The notes beneath the pieces are model-generated. The model ran no database searches. It saw only the letters and a program-made list of their open reading frames with translations, and was not told the origin of the DNA. The position numbers and the translations under genes are program-made. Shown here one piece after another: positions 8,061 to 59,046 of a stretch of DNA of 64,000 nucleotides. The DNA is from Candidatus Omnitrophota bacterium. Its GTDB lineage: Bacteria; Omnitrophota; Gorgyraeia; 2-01-FULL-45-10. The stretch lies in NCBI GenBank assembly GCA_028715345.1, contig JAQUSB010000006.1:4096-68095 (forward strand), read 5' to 3'. Every line of letters starts with the position of its first letter. Positions within the stretch are counted from its first letter, which is position 1.

Positions 8061-8436
8061 TCAGAATTATAGGATAATTTATGACCAACTCGTTATCGAG
8101 CAATATCTCGACCCAATATTTTCCCGGCCCCGGGAAAACAAGATTATTGAACCTGGAGATGAGCGTATGATGCCTGTCGATATCGGCAAGCTCGAATGCC
8201 TGCTCGTCCGTCTGGAATATCGGCTGGTTATTTTTGGGGTTCACGATACGTATCTTCTGCGTGAACGCCCCCTCGCCCTTGCACCATCTGTTTGCGACGA
8301 ATAGAGCGGCGTGCGTAGCCGGGAATTTCTTGGCGTTTATCGCTTCGAATAACCCGATGAGCATGAATTTACCGTTGTCCTCGCGTCTAACGTCGTCGCA
8401 CAATACCGAAAATTGCAGGTTTGGTTTTATCTTCAT
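8032..8436 (-). CDS. Hypothetical protein inserted between trpB and trpA
   Basis: 134 aa ORF exactly filling the trpB-trpA gap (TGAtATG junction with trpB, 29-nt overlap with trpA). GGGGAG upstream of the ATG. No motif I recognise. Confidence 0.5.
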   Translation of the reverse strand: MKIKPNLQFSVLCDDVRREDNGKFMLIGLFEAINAKKFPATHAALFVANRWCKGEGAFTQKIRIVNPKNNQPIFQTDEQAFELADIDRHHTLISRFNNLVFPGPGKYWVEILLDNELVINYPIILNEAKNEQGR

Positions 8437-23254: not shown

Positions 23255-23371
23255 TTTACCCTCCAATCTTGAAGTCACAACTTGTGACATCCTCCCATCT
23301 ATAAAGACGGTTTTCGCCCCGATTTGTTGCAGCCGATTTTAAAATAATTTTGGCGTCTATTTTTCCGGATG

Positions 23372-23380
23372 TGGTATAAT
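23372..23380 (+). promoter_or_regulatory. Extended -10 promoter element (TGgTATAAT) 7 nt upstream of the cinA ATG
   Basis: TGG TATAAT at 23372-23380; cinA ATG at 23388-23390; no SD between them. This implies a leaderless or near-leaderless transcript. Confidence 0.5.
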
Positions 23381-23387
23381 TCGAAAT

Positions 23388-46900: not shown

Positions 46901-49900
46901 ATACAAAATTTCATCGGGGATCCTATCCAGCGACGTTATCCCGAATTGTTCCCGCATCATAACCAGGAATTTTTCTTCCGGCAGTTCAGCTTGCTCCATC
47001 AATGCGCGAAGCTTCGCTATCTGCTCTCCGGATATGGGTGTGCGGAAAAGCTGGGGGCTTGCCGGCATAAGCGGCGTTTTCGGGAAAATTTTATTGTGCA
47101 GTATAACTATGATGTTCGCAAGGACATGATAGATCAAATATTCTTTATAAAGGAATGAAGCAGGCGCCGCGGCATATACATACGTCAACCACAGACTGAT
47201 CAGCGCGACGACCGAAGGCATTATGAAAACAGCCATAGCTGTACCGGCGGCAGAAGGCGCCTTACCGTTATGGTATTTATATATTTCTACATACCTCTTC
47301 GTATTAACATCGTGCAATAGGATCAAGATGGCCGAAGCCGCTATAAGGCCTATCCATCCTCCGGCAAGGCCTCCGATCCCCTTACCCATCTCATACCAGC
47401 ATACCCTGACCCATGCTTCTAAAGGCGGTAATAATGCCAAAGAATAAAACCACCCTATCCCGGAAGGAGGCCTTGACGCAAATCCGCTCTCGCTTTCAGC
47501 ATTCCTTTTAACGGGAACAGCGGCATGTTTGATCTTTTTTACCCGCGCCTTCAAAACATCCGCGATCTTGCGCGAGCCGACCGCGCCCAGCACGCCCTCC
47601 TGCTCCCATTCGCTTTTATTCAAATAAAGAGGCGTATATCCGTTTCCGATCAATAGATAATTCATTAAAAACCATGCCAGGCGATGGTGGCCGCTTGCGG
47701 GATGCGTATTGCCGCCCGAAAGATCCGGTATCGTATCGAATCCCCGTAATAGCACATCCTCTCCGGAAAAATCTGCTCTCCGCCCGCCGCCTATAAATAT
47801 CTCCCGCTGAATGATGTGCGCATAGATATCGCCGGCGTAAGCAATAACATTCTCGCCATTGGCGTATTTATGGTTTACCAGTTCTAGAATATAGCCCAGG
47901 CTTTCTTCGGCTGAACTTATCCTTTGCTGTTTTATTTCATCAGTATATTCCGGATTTTGCCTGTCGCCGCGGTATAATTCGAAGAGAGTGATGATCTTAG
48001 GCCATGTAAGCGGCTCGCCAGATACTGAATTAAAATACTCTGCCGCCTCTATAAAATGGCTATCGCATCCGAGTTTCCGCAAAATATCTATGTCAAGTTT
48101 ACCTATTTGCCGGTCATCCGCCGTTACTGCAAGCGACTGATTTCCCGGGATACGATAATGGCAGATATATGTAGGAGGCAGCTTTCCGGCCGGACGGCAA
48201 TCTACGATATTAACTTCCGGTTCGCTTACCGGCTCCATCTCAGGGAATGAGACCTCCGGATAAAGGTTATCTATACGCAAATTGTACATCTTCCGGCCAC
48301 TGCCTTGGGCTTCATAATGCCTGTATTGGGGTTTTTCCGAAGCGGCATTCAGCCAGTCGCAAAGCTCGCCCGGATCCATAACCCTGCCGGATCCGTCACA
48401 GACGTCAAAACACTCTACGCCTTCGATAAAAGCGATGCCGCCTTTCTTTAGAACCCGTTTGCACTCACGCAGGATCATATTCTTTTGCCGCATATATCGC
48501 AAAGACTCGAACGTAATTATCAGCACATCGAACGAGCCGTCCGGGAAAGGCAGCCCCCGGTCGACATCATGCTCCCTGATATTTTTAAAGAAATAATCGG
48601 TAAATTCCTGATAGTCGGGGCCGAGAAGCCTGTAATGCCTCTCATGCAGCCTTATATTATTTTTATTTATAAAATCGAGCGATAATTCCGGAAATTGCTT
48701 CCTCATATCATAGATATAATGGCCTGCTCCGGCGCCTATGACCAGTCCCCTGGGAGAATGCCCTGCGCTGCGCGCCTCCTGCATTACACCGCGTATAGCC
48801 GGCGCGGCCTCACCGCCGAACATCTCTTCTGTTTTACTGAACCGCCTGCTAACCCAGATAAGCGCAAGGAACTCGTTTTGCTCGGTATTTACTTCAGCTT
48901 CTTTATCATTTTGCAGGACCTCATTTCCCGTATCTGTTCGCCCCTGTCCGGAGATCTCGTCCATGCGCAGGAATGCCTTCGCGCCGAATCTTTGCGCGGT
49001 GCGGGCCATCTCGCGGCCGATCTCGAACCCGGGAGCGCCTATAAGAGCACCTGCCGCCGCATCATAGACGGCTGCCGGGACCCATTGCGCGCCTCGCCTG
49101 CCCGACCACCACGCCGGCCTGCTCTTGCCGCCGCCGGCCTTCCGCCTCTGGCCTGTCTTACCTTTTTTAACCGTGACGGGTTCAGATGGGCCAATATTTT
49201 CATTTTCATCACCGTATTCGTCGTCTTCGTCATCTCCATCCATTTCGTCATCATCGGGCTTCCCTGCAACGGCTTTCCTTAAAAAGTCAGTATCCGATAT
49301 CTGCAGGTCTCCGGCGGAGATGGTCCCGCTTATAATAAGTTTTTTCAGCTTATATTGGGCGGTGGTAAGCAGCATCTTACGGTCATTGGACCTTCTAAGG
49401 TTGAGTCTTTCGACTACGTCTTTTAAGGCCGGCTTCCTTATATAGCCGCTCTCCATATATAATTCAAACGCTGTAGAAATAATCTCCTCAACAGGGAAAA
49501 GAGGTTCCGGATCCATAATAACAGCTTCTTTTCTCCCCATATCTCGCTGCATTTGAACGACATCTAATTCATCTTCAGGATCCATTATTTTCATGAATTT
49601 TTTCGCAGCGGCAGGCGATGGGGCGATAGACCGGCTGAGAGCTTTCAATACCATAAGCGGAAGCGTTTTCGCCAGCGCGTCATTTCCTTTCTCGGGATCC
49701 AGGATATAACTGCACACATATAATCCGCGCTCATCGCAAAAAATAAGCTTCGGCGCTTTCCCGCGTTCCCGTATCTTTTGCGCTTCGAATTCGTACAACA
49801 ATCCATCTTTAAGATATGCTTCCATACGTTCATATGAAGCATTTAAGATTCTCGATATTTCTCCGGAAGATATACCATTGTGCCGGGCGAGCTCCTCTAT

Positions 49901-52900
49901 AAGCCCCCTATTGTCGATCATATCTTTGACTTTCCCTATGGCAACCCTTATAGCCGTCCCTACCTTATCGTATGAGGAATAATCCTTATGCATTTTTTTA
50001 ATCGCGCCGCCCAGCACATAATAGCCTGCGCTGTTCATCTCGGCCATGCGTACCGTTTGAACACCATCCCTGGAACGCGTAAAAATACACTCGATCATTT
50101 CGGTCGCGGAATTTAAACGCATTTCTATTATGAGAGGAGAATAAGAGCTGCCGCCTGTTTCGATTTCGTGCTGAACGCCCCATACCTCGTATTTATATTT
50201 ACCCTTATCATCAGTGAAATCCCGGAATTTAATGCCGTTACGTTTTAAAGGATTGTTGGTATCGACATCCGCGAGGACGGCGCTCAAAATATGTCTGCCG
50301 GCTTCTAGTTCGACATTCACGATTGCCGGCGATGTCGCGCCGGCTTCGGCGGCCTGCGGTTTTGCGCCGGATTTTTTACTTAGCTCAATAATATGCGCCG
50401 GGGCGCTGCGATATTCCTCATCTTTTAAGGAATAATACCTCCACCCGAAAGATTCCTTACTGCCTTTTATATCAAATATATCGCCGCAAACAGCCTTGCG
50501 GAATTCCGCATCTATATCCGGCTCGGCAGGACCTGCCATATTATAATAGATCTTTCCGCCGTCTTTATTCAAAGAGCTTTTGATTATATTCACCAGCGAG
50601 ATCAGGCCGGCCCTTCCCGTTATCCCCGGCGCTTTATCCACCCAGCCCTCAGACTTATACGATCTCGGATTGATGATGTTAACGCAAACTATCCTGTCAA
50701 ATTGAGAACCTATATTCGCGGTTTTAACAGTATCGGATATGCTGCCGGCATGGATAGAAAGCGCTTCTTCCAGGTCGATGCCTGACCGGCCGAAAAATCT
50801 CCTATGGGTCGATACGACCCCTTTCCACTCTTCGATAATATAGCGATTCCCTATATCATATACGACTACCTGTCGCGCCCCTGTCGCAAGCATAAACAGC
50901 GGAATTAAATCCGGGCCTTCGGCTATATAAAGGACGCTCTTGCCTTTCACATCAAGCTCGTCGATTGCCGCGCTTAGGTCGTCCCAATCCATACCCCTTT
51001 TAAATATTGTCCCGTTTTCGAGAATTAAATGCTGATGCCCTCTATTAACCGCTATATCGATAAAGTCTGCCAGAGCGCTATACCCTGTTTCATGCACGGT
51101 ATTTTCGGCCGGCTCTTTTTCCTGTTCCGGTCCAGCCTGATCTAAACTATCTGCCGCCTTGCCCTTTTTCTTTATTGCCGCCTTCTCGATCCTAAATTTG
51201 ATACCGAGAGATTTCAGTTTCTGATTTATATCCGGGACGAGCATATTAATGGCCGAGTGGATAAGCATAGCCACAAGCACGGCTGATACGTTCGCGGCTA
51301 TGGCGGATACGCCTGTGGCATTTATGGCTATAATGGCGGGCAGGGTTACTATGACTGATATGAGGCTAGGGATCGCGGTCTTCTCGATAAATTGTGCAGG
51401 ACTTCTTGCGCTGAATAGGTGCAGTGCGATAAACGCCAATCTGAACAAAATGAAAACGCCGAATGAATTCGGATAGAGAGCCAGAGGCAGTCCCGTAAAT
51501 ATGCCTTCCTCTATTATCGGAGCGATCTCGTCATCGTATTCGTCATCGTCGATCTGCTTACCCAGCTTCCCGGCCAGCCATATTACAGGACGCTTTAATA
51601 TCCATAGAACGCCTTTGGCCGCCGCTGCATTATCAGACATCGTCTTTTCATTCAGATAATTAATGAATTTTTCGACCTTTGCAAGCGGCGGAATGCCTAT
51701 ATCCGGCTGTATTTCTATAATAGTGTGAGAGCTTACTGCGTGCCCACGTCCGAAGCTGCGGCTGATGCCGATATATCCGCATTTATTTTCTCCGTCATAT
51801 ATATCAAGCTGTCCTTCTGCCTTATCTTTTTCATGCTTAAGCATTAAACCGGCAGCCGCGGCCGCCTCTTCTATAAGTTTAATATTAAAAAGGTATTTAA
51901 AGCGTATATGATTGTGCATTACATATTCAACTGCAGGAATTTTTTCTACGCGCTCCGAAAATTTATCTACATGGTTGGATACAAAATAAGCGCTATGAGG
52001 CCTTTGGGACGCGATATGCAGAAGTTCAGCGATAACGGATTTTTCCTCATCGGAAATAGAATATTTTCTCAGCAGAGGGTGCCCGGGATGAAAATACAGC
52101 ATCATGCTATCGCATAATTCATGCCTTGGGTCACTCGCCCCTGAGCGGCTTATTCTCTCCAGACTTTTCTTTTCCCTGTATAAAAAGACAGTTTTAAACC
52201 AGGCGTCTAAATGCGGATACATCGCATGCGAAAAAACTTCCCCTACCTCGTGCGCGATCACCAGTTTATACGTTTCCCTCAAAAATTCTACCTGGTCCGC
52301 TTCGGAAAGTAACGGCCTGGACGGCGCAACCTCTGTGTCGATCATTGCCTGCACCGCGCTAGCTAAAAGATCGCGCGGTATATCCGGTATAGCGATCTCA
52401 CCCCTGTATATAACCCCATCGGGAAGTTGATCCTGAAAGGATATAGCGCCAATATCGCCTTCCATGGGGTCGATCCTGCGGTAAGTGATATCTTTTAGCA
52501 GGAAATCCGGCAAAGGCGCCACCGCATCCTGGATGTCCTTATCACTGAGTATCCGGATAAACCCTTCTCTGGGCCCTTCGACAGGAGCAGTCCTGCCATA
52601 TTTTTTATACTCCTCATTAATATCCCTTTTGATCTCTTCCGGATCCATTTTTTGCGCGCGCGCGGCTTCCCGTACTCCTTTAAAATAATTACGAAGCACG
52701 TACAGCGGAGTTCCGTACATTTCGGCCGAGGAAAGCAATCTGCGCCGCGCCTTTGCATCGGCCATTACCAGATCCGGATATTCTACATCCGCAACCGCGC
52801 CGGCTCTATTGGGATCCGCTATCCTGAGGATGTCATCTGCCCTGGCATAAACGTCGGGATCAAGGTATGGTATCATGACTATATCTTTTGCCACATTTGC

Positions 52901-55900
52901 CGCTTCACTCAAAATACGTGATCCGTATTTTTTATCGCCCACTATACCGGCGGTCCGATGCGTTTCCTCACATAATCGCAAATAGGCATTGAGTACATAT
53001 CTGGCTCCATCCTTTACATTCCGGGTAACGGGGTCGTCTTTGTATTCTTTAAATAGCTGATACGATCTGGACAATGTGACCGATGCGTTATAGTATTTAC
53101 CTGCCCTGACGAATGAGAGGGCTATTTTATTTTGGATATTCATCATCGGCTTTACCTGTGCTTTTAGATTTGTAGTAGCAGGCTTTAATTCATTCAATAA
53201 ACGGCAGGCGCGGCCAAGCATCTTATCCGCCTTATAAAGCATATCCAGCCGCGCTTTATCTTTCATATTCATTTCCCAAAAAATATTACCCAGATTATTA
53301 TGAGTAATTATGAAGTGATGGGCGTTTGACCTAATGGCTTCGAATGCTTCCTTGTTAGGCTTCGATCCTTCGTATATTTCACAGGCTGTGTCAAGAGCCG
53401 CTTCGGCGCCTTCAGGGTCTGTCTGGGCAAGCGTAACCGCGATATTCTGGTACCCGGCCATTACAAATGCCGCTTCCTTATTCATACCCACTGCCGCAGG
53501 GTCATCCTTATACAGGTCGAATATCCTGCGGGCTTTCTCAACCATCAATCGCGCCGTCTTTATATCTTTGCCTTTGATAATGGTAGCCAGATCGCAATAA
53601 CAGCCTTCGATATATTGAAGCTGCGGCTTGATCTCTTCCACCAGGGCATCCTCTTTTCTGATCTTTAAAAATAAGAATATTCGATACGCTCTGTCGAGAA
53701 GCTCTTTTGTTTCCGGATAATTCTCACCGCCCCTTGCCCTCATAAGATCATTTGCCAGGAGAGAAGACGCCTTGGCAATAAGCGGCCCTTTCGCCCTCGT
53801 GATATCGTTGTAAAGCCCTATCCTGAATTCCGCGAACAACCTGTACATCCTGTCGACAACGATCTTTTCTCTGTCAAGCTGTCCTTTTTTACTAAGGCGG
53901 ATTAATAAACTCCTAAGGGTGTCTATAACGTGACCGACCTCTTTTCTTACATCGGCAGTTTCCGGGTCGTCTTTATTCTTATCCAATATAGAACAGGCCT
54001 CTTCTATAGCGGCGTATGCCTCATCAAATTTACCCGGCGCAATAAGGGCTATCGCTTTTTTGTTTAATGCAACGATGGCTTTCCTCGGGGCAGAATGCCT
54101 GGGCGATGTTTTCTTTACCGGCTCGGTCAAGAGGTTCCCGCTTATTGATACACCTGCAACAACGGCAAGCCACGGTACGGCCTCTTTTAGAAATTCATTA
54201 AATCCAGGGATGAGGCCCAATGCTATCAATATTTTTATGATACTTACGCCCAGGATCGCAAACACCAGCACCGCTTTCGCTGTCATACCTATGCCTAAAG
54301 CCGCGCTCTCGGATTTGATAAAGTCGGTAAGGTTCCCCCGCTTCGTCTTGAGCCAATCGAAAAGTCTCGGGAATGCGATAACAGGAACAATGCCTACCAT
54401 AATGACGGGCGTAGGGCCTTTTTTGGGGGTTACCGGCAGACGAAATGTAAAGGTAGTGCCTCTTTCGGGTCCGTCATATACAGCGCTCGCCTTAACACTG
54501 CCTCTTTTTTGTATCATTTCTCTTATAATATTTAAACCGCTGCCTATGCGATCCGGGGCTTTATCTGATCCTACTATGGCGTCTTCGTTGAAAAGCCTGA
54601 CTTTTTCCGGTTCCATTCCGGGGCCGTTATCCGATATAGTCAACACGATCTCATTCCCGTCCATAACCGCATCTATGGTTACACGGCCGCCGTCTATTTC
54701 GGCTACTTTCTCGCGGGCATTGCGCAATACATTGAGCACCGCCCTGAATATCTCGCTCTTAACGCCAAATGCGGCAATATTGCCGGATGATATTTCACAC
54801 CTGATATTATGACGGCGAAGCTCCCAATGAACAGCCACATCCAGTATCTCATTGATATCGAATTCATAGGGTTGATCTGCAGTACCAAGTATCCACGCTA
54901 CTGTCTTTACGCTATATTCGAAGTCGCGCGGGTCTACAGGTTTTTCCTCACCGGGATATTGAGAATCATATTCGTTCAATAGCCTGCCGATGTTATCGTC
55001 CGACAGGAGAGGCAGAAGTCCCCGGCACGATCCCGTAAAATTACGTATATCAGATTCCATCTTCTCCCTGTTCTCTCCCGTCGCGTTGTACCAGCCTGCG
55101 TCTATACTTATAAGGCGCAGGCAGTCGCAATATGCTGTAATGGCACTGCAATATGCGAGGATTTCCCTATTTTGCGTCTTACTCATCTGGACAAATTCGG
55201 CCAATGTAAGAATGGTCCTCATGCAGGAGTCGAAATCGTGGCCGAATTCTTTTACTTTCTCAACCATAATGCCATAATCATCCCCGCGTTGACCGTGTGG
55301 CCTGCTTATGATGGCGGCGATAAAATCGATGCAAGCTCTCAGCTTCCTATCTAGCAAATCTTTCAGTCCCGGGAAAAGTGTCAGCACTATAAGCCCCAGC
55401 ATAAGCGGCCCGGAACGCATCCTCTTTTTGCTCAGTACATCCCACACAGAATCTATGTCGGAACGATTGGATGCTATGTCATCACGGAAGACCGAAGCGT
55501 CCTGAGAAGCAACCACTTTACACCTGTCGAAATCGAAGCGTTGACCCAGCTCCTTTACGCTGAATCCGCTGCGTGTAAGCTGGTCGGGATTGGCGGCATA
55601 AGACAGGTACACGCCGCCGGTTCTCATTACACGCTTCGTCTCTTCCAGCCATAACGGTATCGTGTGATTTATAAAACCGGCATTGGTTATCCCGCCCAGT
55701 GAATCGTCGATCACATAATTAGACATTTCCGCATCGAACCGTCCGCCGTCAAAACATGACATTCTATCGAAACTTGTATGCGCAAGAACTATTTTATCCT
55801 TTCCTCGTATATCCCGGCGCGCCTCCAGCATATTTTTTATTTCGAAAAGGTTGTTCCAGTTAATATCGGCTACGGTAATTTCTGCATCGGGGAAAACATG

Positions 55901-58048
55901 CCTCAAAGCTACTATCTCCTGGATGTGCCTGCCGGGCCCTCTTAATAATATCCTGCCGCTATTTATCCTCCTTACTACATCCGGTTTCAGGGCATCGACC
56001 AAGATCTCTGTATACGCGATCGCCAATTCTTCGCTTATCTCAAAACCAAAGATAACAGCCTCGGCATTAGTATCTTTAACTATAGTCTCATAGTAAGGCC
56101 GGGGCGATAATCCAGGATCATAGCCTGTTATGATCTTAATATCTCCGGAGTCGACATATCCTTTAGCCGCGGAAGTAAATACTGCTTCGCAGGCATTGTA
56201 GATCAGGCTCGCCCATTCCTGCTTCGCACTTATTACCTGCACAATAAGAGTCTCCGGCTTCATTTGTAATTCGGACATTGTATCCTTAAGCCATGCCGAC
56301 CTATCGCAGTTATCCAGCAGGTCCCTCGCCAAAGCGGGTATGCCCACTTTTGGCCCATCATCATACTCCCATAAATACAGGCGTTTCATGGCCCCGGCAT
56401 GGTTTCCTTCCGCTACCATTTGCTGTAAAGGCGTTATTAAACGTTCAACCGCCGCCTCGACATAACCGGCCTGAAAAGACTTTATGTAATCAAAAACTTC
56501 TTTAAATGCCTGCTTTCTCCATTTCAATATTTCATCCAAATGTTCTATCCAGCCTTCAGGGGGTTGGCAGGATTCGAATATGCCGGGACGAATACCGGAA
56601 AGATATTTATACAACTCCTCGGTCGATTTAAAAGAAGGGTGATCTATATTTAACGTATCATGAATAAATTTATCCGCCTCGGCAACTGTCCATTGAGTTT
56701 TATTGTCGGGATCATCCGGTTTAGGAGCATTACTGAAATACGCCGTCGCCGCAATACCTGAAAATATACCTATGAGAATAGCTCCTATGGCAAGAACACT
56801 GCTCCCTGACAATTTGCCTCCCGCGGCGCCGAGCGTAGCCGCGAGAAGATCGCTCTGCAAGATCAGCACAAGGGCTGTGGCAAATATACCGTAAAGCGTA
56901 AATCTATTAAGTATGGCCGCGGCTATTCTTCTCCAGAAAGGAGACGCGCTTACGGCCGTGTCAGGTTTCTGAACTTCAGGCGCCGGAGAAGATGCGGCGT
57001 TAATTGCAGGCGAAAATTTTTGTAGCGCAGGGGCATCGAACGCGGAAATTATTTCTCCGTAGTAATGGTTCCCCTTACCCCACACGCCTTTTATTTGCGC
57101 TTCACGTCTTTTCAAATAGTTTTTATGCGACGCTACTGCATCTTTTACGCTTACAAACCAGAATTTCGCGATGCCCGCTCTCCATAATTCCATAAGAGCA
57201 AGGTCCATAAGGAGAGTGCCTGTGCGCTCTTCTCTATAAGCAGGCAATACCGCCCTGTAAGCTATATACCCTACCTCTCCGGTGTCGCCTTTATCGATAG
57301 TATAGGCCGTAAAACCTATCACACGGCCGCCCTTGTCGACAGCAAGTACCACGGTATTATTTTTAAGCATAGAAAGGAATTTTTCTCTTAAGCCTCTATC
57401 CGCACCTTCCCTGGAGAGATACCATATATTAAACAGCTTCGTGGTGAGATTATCGACATCGTCCTCATATTGCTTCATATAGTCGCCGGGACGATAGTAG
57501 GAAATGTCGTGCTTCCGGGCGGGTTCTGTTTGTTCATGCGGCGGCGTAGCTTTTTTAGGCGCCGGCAATTTCCCGGTCTTGAGATATTGTATCCGGATGG
57601 GACTTCCCTCAGGCATTTCTAGCTCTTTGATGGGCTCGGTCGAATATTTGGACGGCCCGGCATTGCGGTCGTAGAACCTGAGCATATTTCCGCCGGCTAA
57701 CGTCACGAATATTTCGGTTTCACCTTCGGAGTAAGGCGTGGCCCTGAAATTCTCATTTTCGAGCTTATTCAGGACGCTCCTTACGGCAGGCAATTGGACA
57801 GTGGCAAGAGGTAATCTCGATTTTATTATTTGATAAAGATATGCGGCATAAGCATCATCTGAGGCATGCTTAAATAAAGATTCGGGAGCGAGTTTACTAT
57901 TTTCGGACCTCGAGCATGAGATCGGATCGGGATGGGCCCAGGCAATATCCTGAGCAAGGAAAGTCACGACCAGGATCGACGCTATGATCCTGACCGCTTT
58001 CGGAAACCTGCGTGGTAGTGGTTTTTCTGCGCTCGCTTCGCTATTCAT
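25904..58048 (-). CDS. Giant multidomain secreted/membrane protein (~10,714 aa from ATG 58048)
   Basis: Single uninterrupted reading frame of 32.2 kb. The ORF-finder extends it to a TTG at 58108.
Domains (plus-strand nt): signal peptide (~57950-58020); GNAT fold (~57050-57400); SAM-MTase folds (~55560-55990, 50480-50960, 48400-48780, 41800-42180, 41140-41560, 31220-31570); GHKL ATPase (~54430-54880); HD domain (~38060-38400); kinase-like domains (~36600-37100, 33750-34400, 30000-30600); histidine phosphatase RHGETYGN (~28560-29170).
TM clusters (plus-strand nt): 56720-56930, 54180-54420, 51250-51520, 47040-47470, 44590-44900, 43030-43470, 37560-37720. Confidence 0.85.
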   Translation of the reverse strand: MNSEASAEKPLPRRFPKAVRIIASILVVTFLAQDIAWAHPDPISCSRSENSKLAPESLFKHASDDAYAAYLYQIIKSRLPLATVQLPAVRSVLNKLENENFRATPYSEGETEIFVTLAGGNMLRFYDRNAGPSKYSTEPIKELEMPEGSPIRIQYLKTGKLPAPKKATPPHEQTEPARKHDISYYRPGDYMKQYEDDVDNLTTKLFNIWYLSREGADRGLREKFLSMLKNNTVVLAVDKGGRVIGFTAYTIDKGDTGEVGYIAYRAVLPAYREERTGTLLMDLALMELWRAGIAKFWFVSVKDAVASHKNYLKRREAQIKGVWGKGNHYYGEIISAFDAPALQKFSPAINAASSPAPEVQKPDTAVSASPFWRRIAAAILNRFTLYGIFATALVLILQSDLLAATLGAAGGKLSGSSVLAIGAILIGIFSGIAATAYFSNAPKPDDPDNKTQWTVAEADKFIHDTLNIDHPSFKSTEELYKYLSGIRPGIFESCQPPEGWIEHLDEILKWRKQAFKEVFDYIKSFQAGYVEAAVERLITPLQQMVAEGNHAGAMKRLYLWEYDDGPKVGIPALARDLLDNCDRSAWLKDTMSELQMKPETLIVQVISAKQEWASLIYNACEAVFTSAAKGYVDSGDIKIITGYDPGLSPRPYYETIVKDTNAEAVIFGFEISEELAIAYTEILVDALKPDVVRRINSGRILLRGPGRHIQEIVALRHVFPDAEITVADINWNNLFEIKNMLEARRDIRGKDKIVLAHTSFDRMSCFDGGRFDAEMSNYVIDDSLGGITNAGFINHTIPLWLEETKRVMRTGGVYLSYAANPDQLTRSGFSVKELGQRFDFDRCKVVASQDASVFRDDIASNRSDIDSVWDVLSKKRMRSGPLMLGLIVLTLFPGLKDLLDRKLRACIDFIAAIISRPHGQRGDDYGIMVEKVKEFGHDFDSCMRTILTLAEFVQMSKTQNREILAYCSAITAYCDCLRLISIDAGWYNATGENREKMESDIRNFTGSCRGLLPLLSDDNIGRLLNEYDSQYPGEEKPVDPRDFEYSVKTVAWILGTADQPYEFDINEILDVAVHWELRRHNIRCEISSGNIAAFGVKSEIFRAVLNVLRNAREKVAEIDGGRVTIDAVMDGNEIVLTISDNGPGMEPEKVRLFNEDAIVGSDKAPDRIGSGLNIIREMIQKRGSVKASAVYDGPERGTTFTFRLPVTPKKGPTPVIMVGIVPVIAFPRLFDWLKTKRGNLTDFIKSESAALGIGMTAKAVLVFAILGVSIIKILIALGLIPGFNEFLKEAVPWLAVVAGVSISGNLLTEPVKKTSPRHSAPRKAIVALNKKAIALIAPGKFDEAYAAIEEACSILDKNKDDPETADVRKEVGHVIDTLRSLLIRLSKKGQLDREKIVVDRMYRLFAEFRIGLYNDITRAKGPLIAKASSLLANDLMRARGGENYPETKELLDRAYRIFLFLKIRKEDALVEEIKPQLQYIEGCYCDLATIIKGKDIKTARLMVEKARRIFDLYKDDPAAVGMNKEAAFVMAGYQNIAVTLAQTDPEGAEAALDTACEIYEGSKPNKEAFEAIRSNAHHFIITHNNLGNIFWEMNMKDKARLDMLYKADKMLGRACRLLNELKPATTNLKAQVKPMMNIQNKIALSFVRAGKYYNASVTLSRSYQLFKEYKDDPVTRNVKDGARYVLNAYLRLCEETHRTAGIVGDKKYGSRILSEAANVAKDIVMIPYLDPDVYARADDILRIADPNRAGAVADVEYPDLVMADAKARRRLLSSAEMYGTPLYVLRNYFKGVREAARAQKMDPEEIKRDINEEYKKYGRTAPVEGPREGFIRILSDKDIQDAVAPLPDFLLKDITYRRIDPMEGDIGAISFQDQLPDGVIYRGEIAIPDIPRDLLASAVQAMIDTEVAPSRPLLSEADQVEFLRETYKLVIAHEVGEVFSHAMYPHLDAWFKTVFLYREKKSLERISRSGASDPRHELCDSMMLYFHPGHPLLRKYSISDEEKSVIAELLHIASQRPHSAYFVSNHVDKFSERVEKIPAVEYVMHNHIRFKYLFNIKLIEEAAAAAGLMLKHEKDKAEGQLDIYDGENKCGYIGISRSFGRGHAVSSHTIIEIQPDIGIPPLAKVEKFINYLNEKTMSDNAAAAKGVLWILKRPVIWLAGKLGKQIDDDEYDDEIAPIIEEGIFTGLPLALYPNSFGVFILFRLAFIALHLFSARSPAQFIEKTAIPSLISVIVTLPAIIAINATGVSAIAANVSAVLVAMLIHSAINMLVPDINQKLKSLGIKFRIEKAAIKKKGKAADSLDQAGPEQEKEPAENTVHETGYSALADFIDIAVNRGHQHLILENGTIFKRGMDWDDLSAAIDELDVKGKSVLYIAEGPDLIPLFMLATGARQVVVYDIGNRYIIEEWKGVVSTHRRFFGRSGIDLEEALSIHAGSISDTVKTANIGSQFDRIVCVNIINPRSYKSEGWVDKAPGITGRAGLISLVNIIKSSLNKDGGKIYYNMAGPAEPDIDAEFRKAVCGDIFDIKGSKESFGWRYYSLKDEEYRSAPAHIIELSKKSGAKPQAAEAGATSPAIVNVELEAGRHILSAVLADVDTNNPLKRNGIKFRDFTDDKGKYKYEVWGVQHEIETGGSSYSPLIIEMRLNSATEMIECIFTRSRDGVQTVRMAEMNSAGYYVLGGAIKKMHKDYSSYDKVGTAIRVAIGKVKDMIDNRGLIEELARHNGISSGEISRILNASYERMEAYLKDGLLYEFEAQKIRERGKAPKLIFCDERGLYVCSYILDPEKGNDALAKTLPLMVLKALSRSIAPSPAAAKKFMKIMDPEDELDVVQMQRDMGRKEAVIMDPEPLFPVEEIISTAFELYMESGYIRKPALKDVVERLNLRRSNDRKMLLTTAQYKLKKLIISGTISAGDLQISDTDFLRKAVAGKPDDDEMDGDDEDDEYGDENENIGPSEPVTVKKGKTGQRRKAGGGKSRPAWWSGRRGAQWVPAAVYDAAAGALIGAPGFEIGREMARTAQRFGAKAFLRMDEISGQGRTDTGNEVLQNDKEAEVNTEQNEFLALIWVSRRFSKTEEMFGGEAAPAIRGVMQEARSAGHSPRGLVIGAGAGHYIYDMRKQFPELSLDFINKNNIRLHERHYRLLGPDYQEFTDYFFKNIREHDVDRGLPFPDGSFDVLIITFESLRYMRQKNMILRECKRVLKKGGIAFIEGVECFDVCDGSGRVMDPGELCDWLNAASEKPQYRHYEAQGSGRKMYNLRIDNLYPEVSFPEMEPVSEPEVNIVDCRPAGKLPPTYICHYRIPGNQSLAVTADDRQIGKLDIDILRKLGCDSHFIEAAEYFNSVSGEPLTWPKIITLFELYRGDRQNPEYTDEIKQQRISSAEESLGYILELVNHKYANGENVIAYAGDIYAHIIQREIFIGGGRRADFSGEDVLLRGFDTIPDLSGGNTHPASGHHRLAWFLMNYLLIGNGYTPLYLNKSEWEQEGVLGAVGSRKIADVLKARVKKIKHAAVPVKRNAESESGFASRPPSGIGWFYSLALLPPLEAWVRVCWYEMGKGIGGLAGGWIGLIAASAILILLHDVNTKRYVEIYKYHNGKAPSAAGTAMAVFIMPSVVALISLWLTYVYAAAPASFLYKEYLIYHVLANIIVILHNKIFPKTPLMPASPQLFRTPISGEQIAKLRALMEQAELPEEKFLVMMREQFGITSLDRIPDEILYIHEIRRMIKEYGAEERFMRSQGYTIRSVPPASISETEITEGREWLIAAINEEARIVGIVKANWGADRVDFGAETLLEKMLLDGNRSDALNRLSALRRLEPGELNSDTAGKILKAMREKADMFAPKVFYDRICKDGIVPPGEEMRARVWDELADRLKSSMPGWDRKLTPAVLYRVLDVLDAARESLRCYKEGLNALPVSYVRRMVKRLAVGRDKQYAASDTYFVNMDSEDEALVDEQEKAWREASNHRKKIENAAAKRLRKEADAIKSRKDQAAIAGKWRAIPLNIQAGADMRRYANRVKGIGAKTAGLLKDGSLRARAIIYDYPEYSDSFELLTSTSDNETNSAERLANGNIVFVVRGRPQIRNMDTGAYVSLADGEGNYISNANCITVDEKESIFAAAGDGRVFEYGPDGRFIKEYDTADKEMEAEPASMAVFERKLYYWDYARQSIMVMDLTSGEKERVGSSLYGGNGYDRTECMEVHLSIDRVNRILIVAGHPEVYVMPVSIVNFFDIDRKAFVNDKKASAEGAANPAAAVFNYIINQPVGIMHGRDGTGTRFYIAEETVSSPARIHLYTETAEGFREAGYIPVPFGKVFGLTVSPDSGSLTILGYLKHYEVKKCLGVYELSAEAVNTLLRKTETGRDIVGMIPWVSYLFDKKGWDKRGQSRFEQKWFGIGNLLLSAALAYFSDYNLLLALCGSIAVTWTLFFAAHAISAPGVRGPPLSDALAIALLNAVPLFVVSILYLAAVLPLAAAVILAALIYYRTSGIHHEQNLKYFKYEQEIFAKRLAPSRLDVTRRQFDFTAMNVMYGAGSMLSRFSLLRPMGEVIKTYAESRTDSTLLDEPMPIRARTNIEGYDAIDRAFRAQAESGNVRVPLNNQMINIFLVSQGMLLKEWHRIIDLPENKSLKDKVAAAEEKARDKVRKRHPSWQRYLAAELNESGISISERRKFLPYIQIGFVNKETRRELTETGCFNEVIAKILPQQLEVERALGSMPHQDLAELDARIGRGEGLNLPEIKRKALRQLEKDIVRLKVFLADMRDGKYFNGIRGDVIDYLLIETEIGRLENNLKVLTSTTAPSEARPQGAVKKMAAGRVPQNPLKSTDGPRSYLKPAGDWLTSDGMPEDLGGGTPRPAPQDRLPGSRVKEDGESANLLSGKIDKAPVVSLEDMDDDRPSGSIALSSSSGISWFSSLIIMPLLEEGVRVMGHNMGEGVGGIIGGLAGVIFASLLLVLLHDVNVPRYVSLYKANNNKEPSASDTIQGVFTAPIAVMLISLWWTFKSPGAPAICLYAGYVITHVIVNIIIMVYNKLFPKEPLMPASLKIEHERYQEGHHKVYFTIKSGPHRLGDIKYDLDPVNYPGKIYVNYLYVYDETRKEDVRFRLMKLVLEDAKGYKKDVVMPSIVKKEIKAYAKIAKRLNIGIKLEGGRLVFMASVPLPDKQKTASKSNPDPYLDIRRSPDNGEDRVFPRREESRPGMAVNAIGMYGPAKKAIRIEKRLGELENDKMPKLKVIELREWLTAQQIMEAGMKYRVTSPDFNTEDAYVSTSIAPQENTRYHFVGNFIEEAMKTDTGPYSFKPDLKGANVLFIGPGTNPKAITRLIKQYPEIGAIHLVDVSWDVFYALDYFLDEQFHGKPTPKIYGYRMNVLELPEEFTGMMDIVTERCIFDTVKAMPFDRGQAAQARKEIGRILKPGGIHISVEPFAITRYPEDPFVRFVGKFSLNVPYIDDISGTVEETAYVHIKMAPENRQTGPTVTKPITASVIADAMDRELGTYDWMRSNTAYMIDGIGIGQDDDVLCIGSGPLADHAVFSAIKGARVDLCQPPYYEIRDIGAIEQTKCFEGKVNFYKRLMEKIFGYDMIGERIDTGTYRGRVQDVDLPKNHYSKIFLLNVLDELGDSERNDLIAAVLPLSKPDGVILLSALSRDKEPQMIGSLIRIGKMCGYEIKETGRIFEYDKRVYELKVIRADSRAQVKTEGRKAAVGGGRQRPWPGRHGAQWAAAAASAVIKGDILGTLGREIGNEMIRTARNFGARAFRSVEDLQGGGAPAYGEASAIATLNVDMHGKPAGAMASILLSAGLNFREDLKIEYSMIERGGGVSPIKNRFDAGGIMLNTSDLVPGARIKIFVNSNKLSSRACQVIADHIAAAAALYKEEGLFDAVPVKGTVIALAESNGTFIEALKKEGVDIARYHVQPNYKHWLHPTERNDMKELQDGYRADPGVSHAEISDFIKSIEGDLFAALKEEGVSDLQSRESGVISVLLAELLSERFNVPIGGNDEVRIEVTPGLYKNKDAPDIYHAWAAVYTGNEKPALYIDAAFGRFGSEYKDTIIVGPYSKKDRHLKDMRTFFTEILTELGMSIADAEALSGMPQGRRTEQRIVAAYKEYLRAESMRRGEALFPSGTAERDLIERLKKRLAMPAPRDLFASGGKVMPGPISSRRISWQEALARKNDLLKIISRHEGRAALYVHIGGKYVADPHEREVYLANLKTALREETGVVFVIGGDYENLQDVETRAVIVDVPSVTPYNPTPSIGVRVDLDTTEGCRPAWKKLVVAMREMGVEEISPFGGELAEFSSSGGVRVADEDLSGCVGSALYFLQDDFPVKVFPQLCAASSGNRHINVRSSIGLGSYRIRAPAHSDLLADTASMAPVSRPAPLIPVAYTSSGFLNRYLQENPSNKGWLYHRTWIGVIWLILSRNEVSLRRPTWFLNRVPLLEVAKGMGLGRKILETPSIALAFDAKKLVDLGISFSPDFGVISNKAVPLSALTDDSKKELIKALVALSFISPDFPLPDSQKIASVLGFEDVNEVSRLLEEALPGPDSESTALRESLNELLLWGGRGGQYDIRKTLDFVSSDRLGYAKAFTAAGRKLYGHTLIVARNFERSGMAGDLPKIPNLDVPALFRLTLMLHDIGKPMAEDEGDKNRQYTYTPQIIRKLMNRLKFTPAEIDFVVSLIEKDSIGLMVRGIKSVDEAFAEIKDMAIKSGVGLENFFKILTIFYISDVSAYGFGQSITPDGRHIRNDHYNALAKRVSEAAAEKNAAVKKKIIAAYGLEGELSQSVTAENKGLDGLGESGSAPIFNIIKILPLALVALAVYYNYGLVPAAAVMTAAFAGILAWNMLGDYYLRWASEAWQKARLDPEVNKGRVESYYNTLAVVAAAAERLRIGELPLKEKLTPPLNIGILNEDFSLLWCIDNLQEAIRALYPDSPLISEPAPYGSAVVRASDLHAYLEQVLRVISNDKGGQPKITRAPAKIDISRLNTGQAIILGGKEYEVEKRNFAHGGDDKKLVVEVDTGLRFIIEPIEGREKEIELCGGFLKHPCHAKVHAVYKDEGVYLMPDYGTLSLAEHIRYSALEGMPLREYLSARVNEIIWLYEAVSEMHSKGIAHGAVDAERPHILYSSGLPHIVDYEIPYRDGERDYRMCLYGDLRALLGIAECVAKEAYQAYGENDDVKRLTAEIRSMISELPFLPDSSAAVTSSGRIIKQLSGYLDSIGMVRLPAPSYGKNALMRTYPAGRQISPYKTSSGAVWTFGIGDTMDVGPEEQVRIVVGNPPEETDPWGESDIGRTNTPRPAPKTENASAPGAEYDWIKTEAKKHASIIYEFLASEMRRLDAKQEYMVFIGGAGYKLYVLARFLAPDFGLDPDADIKYLDFPRTIYERSPKDGILSYLRKNKNIVGNDERHARMVDVMWDGHAIDRLNEYLEILYPGRFAPLERNKNCILFARHPDANLDIPGFNDTVGFDEIKQKNIEDAAIWLEASLRAPARYVGGVDTAGNIIPCTINRGIISQQPAKLELAPARIDAVGEEIELSVLQEEIRSLHIKEKTGRESLPAPDRDAKPQVEKAQAAAAGVPDKPEMQPGKEGMDRRAFLEAGLMSPFQISPLGHIIVGKVASSSGIPAEAIEAVYTDLFGKCLPETTVEYWDRIQEDHAYAYVDAYPAEIAKLQKETGRSIGESISAYIARRLLSRGDALIAKIKRYRDIVASGEGPIELYPILLDRLTGNTIYDSTRKNAAQNKLDLGRQVDYLIARRMDSIDTENELLEKIRKAKEGGEEYENLERSLRERIVQNEKAIAALREFAKHTDDAQRETIIKLCDERIKHYHGAVEIFKTNIRANAPIYGEKWGEFIANRLSRSGAAVQNKEAAPVPSGDNAVVRAQMPGEGKGEKFIPGQTVKGQARSFVITGLGPRQHAMSNIYEAEDIGASSKVAIKYNVKLIEADFINEIAMAKRLSTRGYKFIPRFIDAAPDNSWYAMEWIEGEDILTWSRGKKPETVLGAVKEFIDAADKLSEEGIVYSDYKISHMLVTAEGGFRLTDFGSWFISGDRQNVFETYQWKIGDTLAVLATGEVNIPGGVENPDKLKEYITGSGSGDWLPFAEMISQIKSGMYKSFKEMRAAVDMAIAASAEPAKPQGGAANQLSVAKTAVPQAMRGRIKALDDFGGNPLHPLPSEARGVWQPQVSRRDFMKWTAAMAKGLAVPDGEGVIAAFKSMENLGTPEANKDWARIVYVFSQNPTLFTRLRTELNVARLYPDIPGFIRRQYGQVVMEAIYKVRMAEAGLGRGVIQYKLLPTDSKDWTDSVPEDVSLDEAFHDKAAPAISMQEADAKLNSMVNDICLQAEPMFADRDFRGTITEALQGELSLNSRKEILLLRWLEDMFYKGPDEVARRIKRALELDQEASSAAFEELTKAIFKVTPMTGRDIIIMGIPEARIVRFKTSERKIWARLVYTDVEKRFGYASEKLSGVMRVLGRVLPDDMRSMIFQSKGAQAFNAYWSKERAVWRQAWQEAKQAVLREDAAVSEKPAEAATPQQTAVAEGKDTAIPKPGKYARIEPDAAGIPVHTSRKTGPVPAFAETEIDLTKVDLFKIDTGKPLAEKVMKAAEENNFSVQLRKDAGVEASAPEAMELFLKHVLMNIIANLKHHEYRYSFGGGGTASNYVVARIYPCNEPYDGIRLEIWGPGSNKLPEELTAKEWFTTKDRPWPGEKAPNSARGVKTGAGGGVSAMFYALETIEESIAMPEGASITVGWQDDILHEGPKPGGHIIKIQIPLPRNTQGEEAKAASRIEDGKIARLSSVLSRPEYQSPYQQGDATGVDGDVGIYVGSDIYALRELFANLCDENLQPVSIKGKKLFDAGSGRGDVLFTAAVCGAGLADGSELDDKLRGLTAKIRTALEGENIIGKGIVNIPAERNDNDFTKKDLSGYDIVVYVDRGAFPREQETLYRNFAGQAKPGAMFIILNLTTADNYFEKFFPAARFTGYKVPNSMVPSFPSMVFVKKTDEYSATKPAATKTEPDVAAEHGSSLGGDEFLNNDRPASSPFGGRPRRRSDRKESRWDVFDRFIRKLNTVDFEVIEKAETAKNIGEKRDILNRIGIEEALEVDAAYLVSAIRKVHENLKPSAETSGKAVVWTDMLSYGGVGRYLICYKDEDPADGFVAKVPNGEHAMAYADIYSLDGAKIAMKRLGQGPAADLMIIDTRAAQQKPFVFYTETQGRVESKVAIVQRKVLPLIDYLKPLGRKGCSDDELKRAISYVDKFKRLVIAMYKRGVVDIDTHNIVGNYGIRKSDDDLTIFDVGDISESADAAREFVDNIDSFNKRIADSFTEIEGVFLDERIAGHFMKNPFRREDFIDNGNDLFGSEYDPEKSIMKFPYTEDEIRCLFVGVSLHRRESRSPFVVSVGSSAFADSVKNRQPTPEELSYLVNIKAVHDAAGTGRDIGFAISPDLPTDSIIRLINGRFIIYVSEKEVSDIITGRATSARRAKFEHFSIPHEIDHMATNASGDVVSEIDATMRTLTRLTTLDERMFAEVCLDNPHVKALLQAVGIDTGKDNLKNELARAISQRSILVKNIAIMLSEFDLDVRAEIYRKGGIDKIVEEVVIVPPKKSVPQRKTGTDPYAAVRPEDMGGSILVDDSTGRIRFGEAGFIEPEFDLWMVRHGETYGNAEGIFQGMLDEPINKLNKRGLEQAGSAAIELFRQLEVRIISGEKIVILTSQLSRAKDTAKAFVDLVKERTGVVVETAPDELLNEINFGIWDNKREDQLSAEEAALATRYRKGLDATIRPKGGQSFIDMIKRSRDLMIKLNSQYKNRTVVAFGHGTQTSAMRAAMGDRNLLDASSQIDWRKNMLPNATPVLYKNKALLRRTYVALFTTVTDINTPGLLIHGHVAAHLDPEDRVDSLLSIFREGIKPWNDLPPRFKKYDFVGRGDPSKVSLSMVGKLGYSSTSACNSIWGAPDPALKWRIDSDELWKDHKFDLALIISPYYLRQHINDFTACGEFFKDTHVMSSNYRDETGSIYSNIRYEEAHLVKDPTHDEVHTKYVPPEAIVGVIVYDQYAEEFRDFFVKEFPDRSLRVFNQDGKLLFDIDASMPAAALGRGSSQVGDDTTKISEAHKVDGAMRRDDGAKHRAIFPQAGGPTAPDTQALREMQSPLRSGGALRFASGMPEKPEEASGIPGVVKFARARYTRDPFSYIELHFGVGKPLSSECPSIAWTISASYDEWRIEFYDTNELSTQDNMPSLVAGISLAQKSKGIRLESRSAIPDLHPLRKTLPIICEKLGSLAHLLGISFVDNTGIAPAAPSPAPSAGAEELIWNENVTEQTLAEMVEGGRFEYNKAIGNEKQVTAYRFIAKLIQDTVNKRHPVLNQSTRDIVNGNINWLFWGVMTPDELQKEIGDPDAISGNISRGYSNSAEVDFNALCDLMDIGTEVYLTLSRAIIKKYGAANAESTGVWQSSAWIINFRDQLDNAYRHIRSSPEAEEFIKKAMAKVDSFMKSFYPVEPSPEQEPSAASERRSSDGEDDLADETQIVTDAAGANAGDEVSDMITAADRRFRESLAATPLPAGAQIVFSERLFETEDAEHLRGLVGNDKPVRVGSFDEIKEIASREDVDRTAGEGTAACIMTRDEFTRLCKQRGLEQNPEKLKATILVISKLEGTNYLYLEAVADLAKAMMEKDTARIKMGMNFLFGDVQVTDEILTDSLALALSVILRFKPVTKIDVEDRLNHYKKMVEDALMAA

Positions 58049-58092
58049 TTGCCCTATATAATGTTTTATTCTTTTAACAAGACAAAAATAAA

Positions 58093-58131
58093 AAGACCAG
58101 ATCGCCAAGCGTCTCTAGGCTATCTGGTCTT
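58093..58131 (-). other. Perfect 10-bp inverted repeat hairpin plus T-tract in the giant-gene leader (terminator/attenuator-like)
   Basis: AAGACCAGAT (58093-58102) and ATCTGGTCTT (58122-58131) flank a 19-nt loop. On the minus strand the hairpin is followed directly by UUUAUUUUUGUCUUGUU (58072-58092), about 25 nt upstream of ATG 58046-58048. Confidence 0.5.
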
Positions 58132-58293
58132 ATATTAAGATATATTTATCGTAAAATGTAGCTAAATATATTTTTCTTAAGACCCTCAACTCCCCCGAGT
58201 TTTTTAGCGGGGATCCTAGAAAATATGTATTGTAAGAATACCATATTCCAGGATATGAGTCAAGTGCTTAAAGCTAACTTTTTTTACTTTAAC

Positions 58294-58482
58294 CTATTCC
58301 TCGCCCTTTTTGAAGAATTTTGTCCTGATACCGCTGAAATCCTCGATGAATATTCTGCAGAGGTAATTGATCACTTCGCTCACTTCCCTGTTATTCTCGG
58401 TGCACATTCCTTTTATCTTCTCTTCGATAGATTTACTCGTCCTGCACCCCAGGAACCCATCGCATCTCTTTAACTTTTTCAT
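58294..58482 (-). CDS. Small Lys-rich, 4-Cys protein (62 aa) directly upstream of the giant gene
   Basis: ATG 58480-58482 preceded by perfect AGGAGG (58486-58491) at 3-nt spacing. MKKLKRCDGFLGCRTSK...GMCTENN...YLCRIF. The ORF-finder's longer TTG-initiated version is rejected. Same strand as the giant gene. Confidence 0.45.
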   Translation of the reverse strand: MKKLKRCDGFLGCRTSKSIEEKIKGMCTENNREVSEVINYLCRIFIEDFSGIRTKFFKKGEE

Positions 58483-58593
58483 ACGCCTCCTAAACTTGTA
58501 TATCAAATATTATACACATAAATACCTATCTTGGCAAGTTTATTCTGCCACGAGCTAGCTAAGTGCCGCGAGTTCTACGAGCGGCCAAGTTTA

Positions 58594-59046
58594 TTATAGG
58601 CGGATAATAAACCTGAATATCACCTGGAGTATAAGGTTCGTGTATATCGCGGCTACGATATCGTCGAACATTACGCCGAGCGAGCCGGTCAATTTTTCCA
58701 TCCTCTTCGCGGGCGGCGGTTTCAATATATCGAATATCCTGAACAGGAAAAACCCGAGTATCACAGCCAAAGCGCTGAACGGCACGAAGAAAAGAGCAAG
58801 CAGCATCCCGCACGCCTCGTCTATCACTATCATGTTGGCGTCTTTTCTCTTGTATATCTTTTCGGCTTCGCCGGAGAATATTATTCCCAGCACGAAAAGG
58901 AACAGGATGGAAAAACCGTACAGTACGTCTACGTTCCTTACAAGAAAATACACCGCTAACCCGCCGAGAGAACCTACCGTCCCCGGCATAAAAGGAGAAT
59001 GGCCGAGGTAGAAAAAACTTGTGATCATCTTAATCCGTTTTTTCAT
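58594..59046 (-). CDS. pgpA: Phosphatidylglycerophosphatase A
   Basis: 150 aa. GTVGSLGG...IDEACGM...FRIFDILKPPPA PgpA family motifs. Confidence 0.85.
   Translation of the reverse strand: MKKRIKMITSFFYLGHSPFMPGTVGSLGGLAVYFLVRNVDVLYGFSILFLFVLGIIFSGEAEKIYKRKDANMIVIDEACGMLLALFFVPFSALAVILGFFLFRIFDILKPPPAKRMEKLTGSLGVMFDDIVAAIYTNLILQVIFRFIIRL

Follow-up and report, generated by a model that had tools for sequence, protein, structure and literature searches.

A conserved predicted promoter and a putative terminator-containing leader RNA between a small regulator-like gene and a giant gene in Candidatus Omnitrophota

How the transcription of a 32-kb gene might be controlled is a question raised by a 64,000-nucleotide (nt) stretch of DNA from a Candidatus Omnitrophota bacterium (assembly GCA_028715345.1, contig JAQUSB010000006.1, positions 4,096 to 68,095 of the forward strand), referred to here as the window. 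Its minus strand encodes, in order, FtsK, a RodZ-like protein, a MiaB/RimO-type radical-SAM enzyme, PgsA, PgpA, a 62-amino-acid (aa) open reading frame (ORF) and a giant ORF. An initial annotation of the window had proposed that the layout would allow the giant gene to be expressed either by read-through from the small ORF or from a dedicated leaderless promoter directly before its start codon. Every feature that it described was found where it had been placed, and folding of the region 58040-58300 (261 nt), one of the checks that it recommended, gave z = -4.5 against shuffled versions, indicating features beyond chance. Its account missed a conserved promoter (P2) about 186 nt upstream of the giant-gene ATG, together with a conserved leader between P2 and the terminator. 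Judged from sequence, P2, the terminator-containing leader of about 180 nt and the small regulator-like gene together look like a gate on transcription of the giant gene. Two papers on giant genes in Omnitrophota (bioRxiv 10.1101/2023.11.21.568195; bioRxiv 10.64898/2026.06.07.730766) make no mention of promoters, terminators or leaderless transcripts. The locus offers a testable layout, consisting of a conserved promoter, an undescribed family of terminator-containing leader RNAs and a phylum-specific, regulator-like small protein; the leader RNA and the small-protein family are undescribed but the kinds of control element are known, and the regulation of the giant gene is thereby made testable. 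All elements of the locus lie on the minus strand unless another strand is given.

The nearest public relatives of the window are metagenome-assembled Candidatus Omnitrophota genomes with an identical gene order. The small gene precedes a homologue of the giant gene in 14 lineages, namely the window itself, L015, L007, L032, L001, L009, L003, L004, L027, L033, L036, L020, L035 and L019. The small proteins of L003 and L004 are identical, and the L036 contig stops inside the terminator, leaving the leader visible but neither the giant gene itself nor the distance from the -10 box to the ATG. Pair identity reaches 0.83-0.98 at 58222-58178, in the first domain of the leader, and 0.87-0.89 across the terminator, against about 0.4-0.7 for the coding sequence of pgpA and, for the most part, 0.75-0.87 for the small ORF. 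Conservation of the leader blocks and of the terminator exceeds that of either coding sequence, and about half of the small-ORF codons differ synonymously between lineages.

P2 lies 31 nt past the stop codon of the small gene, with a predicted start site near 58228. All 14 lineages retain the -35 box, the TG and the -10 box, while the sequence of the spacer varies. The distance between the P2 -10 box and the giant-gene ATG forms a natural series. It is 186-245 nt in the 10 full-leader lineages, which have all three elements of the leader (a 5' hairpin domain, a variable hairpin and a terminator), and 152 nt in L020, in which the first domain is truncated and the terminator is retained. In L035 the distance is 65 nt, the hairpins and the terminator being gone and an A-rich tail being retained, and in L019 it is only 8 nt, with no leader, in front of an ORF that is 49% identical to the N-terminus encoded in the window. 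P2 and the giant-gene start codon are retained in all of these shortened variants. Because P2 survives where parts of the leader are lost, it appears to serve the giant gene and not an independent RNA, and it is probably the giant gene's promoter, as far as activity can be predicted from the conserved boxes. The leader itself is most likely a modular addition, a putative attenuator that contains a terminator. The series amounts to a ready-made deletion experiment that can be used without culturing the organism. The coordinates of the elements are collected in Table 1.

Table 1. Positions of promoters, RNA elements and reading frames at the giant-gene locus, numbered along the window
Feature	Position	Strand	Sequence, basis or remark
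P1, predicted small-gene promoter	58509..58537	-	TTGCCA, 17 nt, TATAAT; consensus scan; 11/12 consensus matches
Inverted repeat TGTATA-N8-TATACA, candidate operator	58497..58516		overlaps the P1 -10 box and predicted start site
Shine-Dalgarno sequence of the small ORF	58486..58491	-	AGGAGG; 3 nt, then ATG 58482
Small ORF, 62 aa	58294..58482	-	Omnitrophota-specific family, probably ribbon-helix-helix (RHH)-like; 28 homologues
P2, predicted giant-gene promoter	58235..58263	-	TTGACT, 17 nt, TATTCT, TG at -15/-14; consensus scan; conservation
Leader domain 1	58172..58223	-	UUUUCUAGGA, with UCUU.AGAAAA around inner CCCCG/CGGGG; 9-nt asymmetric internal loop (58191-58183)
Variable hairpin	58141..58170	-	AU-rich here, GC-rich in other lineages
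Predicted intrinsic terminator hairpin	58093..58131	-	10-bp outer stem and inner stem GCCUAG/CUUGGC; fold and conservation
U-rich tract after the terminator stem	58081..58092	-	U in 9/10 bases here, 7-9/10 in orthologues
A-rich block between terminator and start codon	58064..58079	-	UGUUAAAAGAAUAAAA; few positions vary
TATATA, -10 box proposed in the initial annotation	58055..58060	-	GGGCAA, then ATG 58048; not conserved
Giant ORF, 10,714 aa from ATG 58048	25904..58048	-	GNAT domain at residues 227-311
Hairpin in codons ~18-27 of the giant ORF	57966..57997	-	12-bp, core CAGGATC...GATCCTG; hydrophobic core of putative signal peptide

The last hairpin of the leader had already been described as terminator-like, and the comparison bears this out. 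The outer stem is perfect (AAGACCAGAT, 58131-58122, with ATCTGGTCTT, 58102-58093) and lies 163 nt past the small ORF; the 19-nt 'loop' contains the inner stem, and the hairpin is followed by UUUAUUUUUGUCUUGUU. In the window it folds at -20.6 kcal/mol, and across the 11 lineages that keep the hairpin the energy ranges from -13 to -24 kcal/mol. Compensated pairs include U-A/A-U/C-G and A-U/G-C, as well as G-C/A-U in L020. With a stable stem-loop, a U-rich tract and a helix kept by compensatory change, this hairpin is very likely to work as a terminator.

The division of the leader into three elements is obtained with RNAalifold as well as with single-sequence folds. Domain 1, the 5' hairpin domain, is present in the RNAalifold consensus and is the most conserved stretch of the locus. 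It is 98-100% pairable, with pairs that are invariant or changed on one side only among the available lineages, which are mutually too similar, and the changes observed are confined to loops or are compatible with pairing (U.G to U-A, C-G to U.G). The proposed structure is compatible with these data, if unproven. At the variable hairpin, each orthologue folds a hairpin from unrelated sequence. Searching with a covariance model built from the leader gives a single match at each locus, invariably ahead of a gene of this giant family, and L020, which had not contributed to the model, is also matched. Rfam 15 scans of the window region and four orthologous loci returned nothing near gathering scores. 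The DNA of the leader also contains the palindromes CTAG, GGATCC and CTTAAG. Several other possibilities were tried here and rejected. No leader peptide was found; the leader contains no AUG, the UUG that follows GGGGGAG is UCG or CUG in orthologues, and ATG 58244 opens frames of 13, 19 or 32 codons in the three lineages inspected by hand. A helix between the U-tract and the A-rich tail was rejected on account of changes in L001 and L032 that are not compensatory, and pairing of the terminator 5' arm with the hairpin inside the giant ORF fits L003 and fails in L033 and L007.

The alignment places the giant-gene start at ATG 58048. This codon is conserved and, because 11/13 orthologues carry an in-frame stop 9-39 nt upstream of it with no alternative start codon, the annotated extension to TTG 58108, which falls within the terminator hairpin, is an artefact of the open frame. 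The suspicion that this TTG is not used was thus well founded, and the analysis corrects the annotated start codon of the giant gene. The A-rich block that precedes the start is kept with two substitutions in the hairpin-less L035, is absent only from L019, and is probably part of the translation initiation region. Most lineages have a poorly placed AGGR 3-4 nt before the ATG. Because about one third of the genes in the window likewise lack a Shine-Dalgarno sequence, the lack of a proper one at the giant gene is not unusual. By eye, the N-terminus of the giant ORF (RRFPKAVRIIASILVVTFLAQDIAWA) resembles a signal peptide or membrane anchor; searching for homologues with the first 200 aa of the protein returned just three matches. 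The hairpin within the first codons survives in L003 owing to synonymous changes in two Ile codons, and in L007 although the encoded peptide differs, and has one mismatch in some other lineages. Two lineages have an extra inverted repeat between the A-rich tail and the ATG, which in L027 (5492-5546) is a perfect GC-rich hairpin (GTAGCGCACCC..GGGTGCGCTAC) and in L033 (1673-1723) is shorter and mostly AT-rich.

A dedicated leaderless promoter at TATATA, the second of the two modes of expression in the initial annotation, is not supported, whereas read-through remains plausible. TATATA lacks the terminal T of a -10 box and a -35 partner and is not called by the consensus scan, which found no sigma-70-like site anywhere in the interval between the terminator and the ATG. 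In orthologues its place is taken by TAGATA, TACTTA, ATAATA or hexamers of that kind, and the spacing to the ATG varies. Of the other hexamers near ATG 58048, TTATAT has no A at position 2 and CATTAT is 9 nt away, and no TANNNT hexamer ends 6-8 nt before this start codon in the window. Leaderless mRNAs are common in Actinobacteria, Deinococcus and archaea, and similar layouts do occur here. In L019, the only orthologue with a good start-proximal -10 box, the P2 -10 box (TATTAT) is followed by 8 nt and the ATG, a leaderless-like arrangement. As had been pointed out, the cinA-like gene on the plus strand of the window (23363-23390, start 23388) has TGgTATAAT, 7 nt and ATG without a Shine-Dalgarno sequence, a textbook layout of the leaderless type. 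Elsewhere in the window, the minus-strand gene 8060-7254 has TATAAT, 5 nt and ATG (8060-8076), a possible leaderless or near-leaderless start. The leaderless idea is therefore reasonable for the lineage and a misfit for the giant gene in this genome, whose conserved promoter lies 186 nt upstream. A weak start-proximal promoter may exist in such AT-rich DNA, an example being the TAGAAT 6 nt before the ATG of L009, but it is not what selection has preserved.

Taken in order, the elements suggest two transcription units that share one terminator. P1, the predicted promoter of the small gene, would drive the 62-aa ORF, whose product, probably of the RHH type, would repress its own promoter via the inverted repeat on the -10 box. 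The P2 transcript would start near 58228 and comprise the 5' hairpin domain, the variable hairpin, the strong terminator, the A-rich region poor in Shine-Dalgarno signals and AUG 58048. Most transcripts from P1 and P2 alike would end at the terminator, at 58090-58084, and the 32-kb gene would be transcribed only upon read-through, the frequency of which the conserved 5' domain would set by binding some factor or ligand. Such terminator-based attenuation, tuned by the 5' domain through some partner, is put forward tentatively, with slightly less than even confidence. A promoter, a conserved leader and a terminator do lie upstream of the gene that would be regulated, but a mutually exclusive antiterminator does not appear among them. 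Several points weigh against regulated read-through. No conserved antiterminator pairing of the terminator 5' arm was found, and read-through could be constitutive; the only option, a GGUCU/AGACC helix of 5-7 bp, is not kept in L020 and was rejected. Domain 1 hardly varies and has no double-compensated pairs, and its conservation could reflect binding sites at the level of DNA rather than RNA structure. L019 and L035 indicate that the leader is dispensable. The calls of promoters and terminator use E. coli-type rules, assumed to be valid for Omnitrophota, and the RHH assignment of the small protein has neither a significant fold score nor support at the level of sequence.

The same layout could be read without any sensing. 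The terminator would then be a constitutive damper or insulator that allows a fixed, small read-through and uncouples a well-expressed small gene from the giant gene, with the 5' hairpin protecting the long mRNA from decay that depends on the 5' end. That no antiterminator alternative was found and that lineages without a leader exist would both be expected, and the 5' hairpin starts about 5 nt from the predicted start site; stabilizing 5' stem-loops, such as that of the ompA 5' untranslated region, typically begin so near the start of the transcript. This account is nevertheless judged unlikely. It leaves unexplained the near-invariance of about 50 nt that include an unpaired internal loop, as well as the invariant inner stem of the terminator, given that ordinary terminators and stabilizers drift.

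A further possibility is that the DNA from P2 to the terminator is a free-standing small RNA (sRNA) gene of about 145 nt, and that the giant gene has a weak promoter of its own in the 45 nt past the terminator, possibly the leaderless TATATA. Promoter, conserved structured RNA and terminator are indeed the anatomy of an sRNA gene. The leaderless-type layouts at the cinA-like gene and in L019 fit this arrangement, as do the frequency of genes without a Shine-Dalgarno sequence and the AT-rich, -10-like hexamers that about half of the orthologues, L009 among them, have 6-9 nt ahead of the ATG. However, P2 is kept, correctly spaced and directly abutting the giant gene, in the two lineages that have lost some or all of the RNA (L035 and L019), and so is not a promoter that serves the RNA alone. 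The RNA is found only upstream of the giant-gene family, and TATATA has the defects already described, making a separate sRNA gene improbable. Slightly more improbable still is a role for the conserved blocks past P2 as DNA operators, to which a repressor, either the small RHH-like protein or a different one, would bind and prevent transcription from starting or proceeding, while the hairpin would do no more than end the transcript of the small gene. RHH repressors commonly act on neighbouring genes, and the small gene is repeatedly found just upstream of genes for very large secreted proteins. An ATATG-N14-CATAT repeat flanks the P2 -10 box in every full-leader lineage with sequence, and a comparison by eye shows agreement at 13/18 positions between the P2 -10 region and the right half of the motif in small-gene promoters. 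Neither P2 nor the leader scores notably with a 21-nt operator matrix, though, and variation in the leader follows RNA helices and loops, the variable hairpin keeping its structure and not its sequence. A terminator for the small gene alone would also be expected before P2, not after it.

Attenuation by a terminator in the leader has counterparts in the riboswitches, T-boxes and targets of PyrR, TRAP and LicT. As in these systems, a promoter, a conserved structured leader and an intrinsic terminator precede the gene that would be regulated, and the giant-gene leader is conserved above the neighbouring coding sequence. The leader differs from them in having no Rfam match and no detectable mutually exclusive antiterminator helix, and in that the proposed sensing domain is split from the terminator by the variable hairpin. 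Processive antitermination also acts in the leaders of long operons, as in the put RNA of phage HK022, the EAR RNA of Bacillus, LoaP-dependent leaders and RfaH/ops. These share with the present locus a conserved 5' element on an exceptionally long unit with a terminator just downstream, but the leader matches neither EAR nor other Rfam models and no gene for a NusG paralogue is adjacent. A scan of the giant ORF over its 5' 20 kb showed promoter-like as well as terminator-like sites to be about as frequent as chance predicts; because internal terminator-like sites are at chance, no special need for antitermination is evident. In its most far-reaching form, which we regard as a speculative outside chance, attenuation would make domain 1 (58223-58172) the sensor of an undescribed class of riboswitch or protein-dependent attenuator and, with the small RHH-like protein, part of a control system dedicated to giant surface or secreted proteins in this phylum. 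Were this true, the sensor would license transcription of the 32-kb gene.

The small ORF is a true, conserved gene on which purifying selection is strong. Of 56 codons compared, relatives show 21-30 synonymous differences from the window (L015, the closest, shows 11) and only 2-10 amino-acid changes. The 28 homologues, with 61-94% identity, all come from Omnitrophota or from unassigned metagenome contigs. The four cysteines (at 7, 13, 27 and 42), the richness in lysine (9 Lys) and the perfect AGGAGG are also as first described, and a GGAGG-type motif is present upstream of the ORF in most orthologues at variable spacing. Because an exhaustive profile search of 1.84 billion representative proteins retrieved only 7 cluster representatives, the family appears narrow, and an exact look-up of the 62-aa protein of the window gave no record. 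Relatives have Y, F or S in place of Cys7, and the distant ones have F or S in place of Cys13; the four cysteines do not persist together through the family, and a four-cysteine metal-binding protein was rejected on this ground.

An AlphaFold2 monomer model of the small protein (predicted local distance difference test score 79) has an extended N-terminus followed by helices at 17-30, 34-47 and 49-60. The top matches of this model in a Foldseek search of the PDB are nearly all RHH proteins (CopG, Arc, CdbA, AmrZ and antitoxins), at a non-significant E of about 2. Pfam and PDB sequence searches with the protein, the family profile and the most distant members gave no RHH or other meaningful match, the matches to IL-10 being spurious. 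The small protein is probably RHH-like, with DNA binding predicted, although this can be said with moderate confidence only. Similarities to RHH autorepressors (CopG, Arc, Mnt, MetJ, AmrZ and type II antitoxins) include the small size, the predicted order of an extended N-terminal stretch and then two helices, the second of which opens with an S-E-V motif, the identity of the best fold matches, and the inverted repeat over the gene's own -10 box. In contrast to those repressors, the small protein has an extra C-terminal helix, its family is confined to Omnitrophota and lacks a significant score, and its partners are giant or TPS-type secreted-protein genes rather than toxins or genes for plasmid replication.

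The promoter of the small gene supports the same comparison. Most close orthologues share the P1 -10 box and its flank (GTGTATAATATTTGATATACA) letter for letter, L033 and L027 being the ones that differ, and the TGTATA-N8-TATACA repeat is likewise identical in most close relatives, L027 and L033 again excepted. Promoters of distant homologues of the small gene contain a related element (consensus TTGTTAAACATATGTTATACT), which includes the palindrome AACATATGTT. A matrix derived from those distant promoters alone places the P1 repeat of the window 1st and 3rd among 127,960 window positions. This layout is what an autoregulated repressor gene looks like, and binding of a protein to the repeat is predicted. 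The sequence around P1 varies in other respects as well. In the window (58529-58597), AATAAACTTG lies over the P1 -35 box and recurs 51 nt upstream, flanking a short insert; comparable direct repeats of 15-19 bp are present in L007 and L027 and missing from the other lineages, and the duplication may be a small insertion or a promoter duplication. L019 alone has a palindromic element of about 70 nt (777-847), with 20-nt arms TTAATCAACCCCGGGGTTAAC ... GTTAACCCCGGGGTTGATTAA, between P1 and the Shine-Dalgarno sequence of the small ORF.

A search for homologues of the small protein beside other giant genes, recommended in the initial annotation, proved productive. Beyond the 14 lineages in which the small gene precedes a giant-gene homologue, six more distant lineages (L018, L022, L029, L030, L011 and L025) have it directly upstream of, or overlapping, a gene that encodes a TPS secretion domain (PF05860). 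In L018, the order pgsA, pgpA and small gene is kept and a gene for a TPS-domain exoprotein replaces the giant gene. Because the small gene is repeatedly paired with genes for very large secreted proteins, this distribution suggests that its product is a dedicated regulator of such genes. In three lineages the neighbours of the small gene are ordinary (ROK, TGT and an unknown 157-aa protein). In L018, a T-run hairpin and a second P1-like element (GTGTATTATATATGTTATACT) stand ahead of the TPS gene (6187-6392).

Many metagenome contigs, including those of L035, L036-L039, L002, L012 and L014, stop within a few hundred bases past the small gene, and assembly thus seems often to fail where the giant gene starts. 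Because of these breaks, the true number of such loci is probably under-counted. Finally, L010 (8035-9771, on the same contig as L021) contains a 578-aa ORF without a Pfam match that has a paralogous copy of the small-protein domain in its C-terminal part and sits just upstream of a stand-alone small gene.

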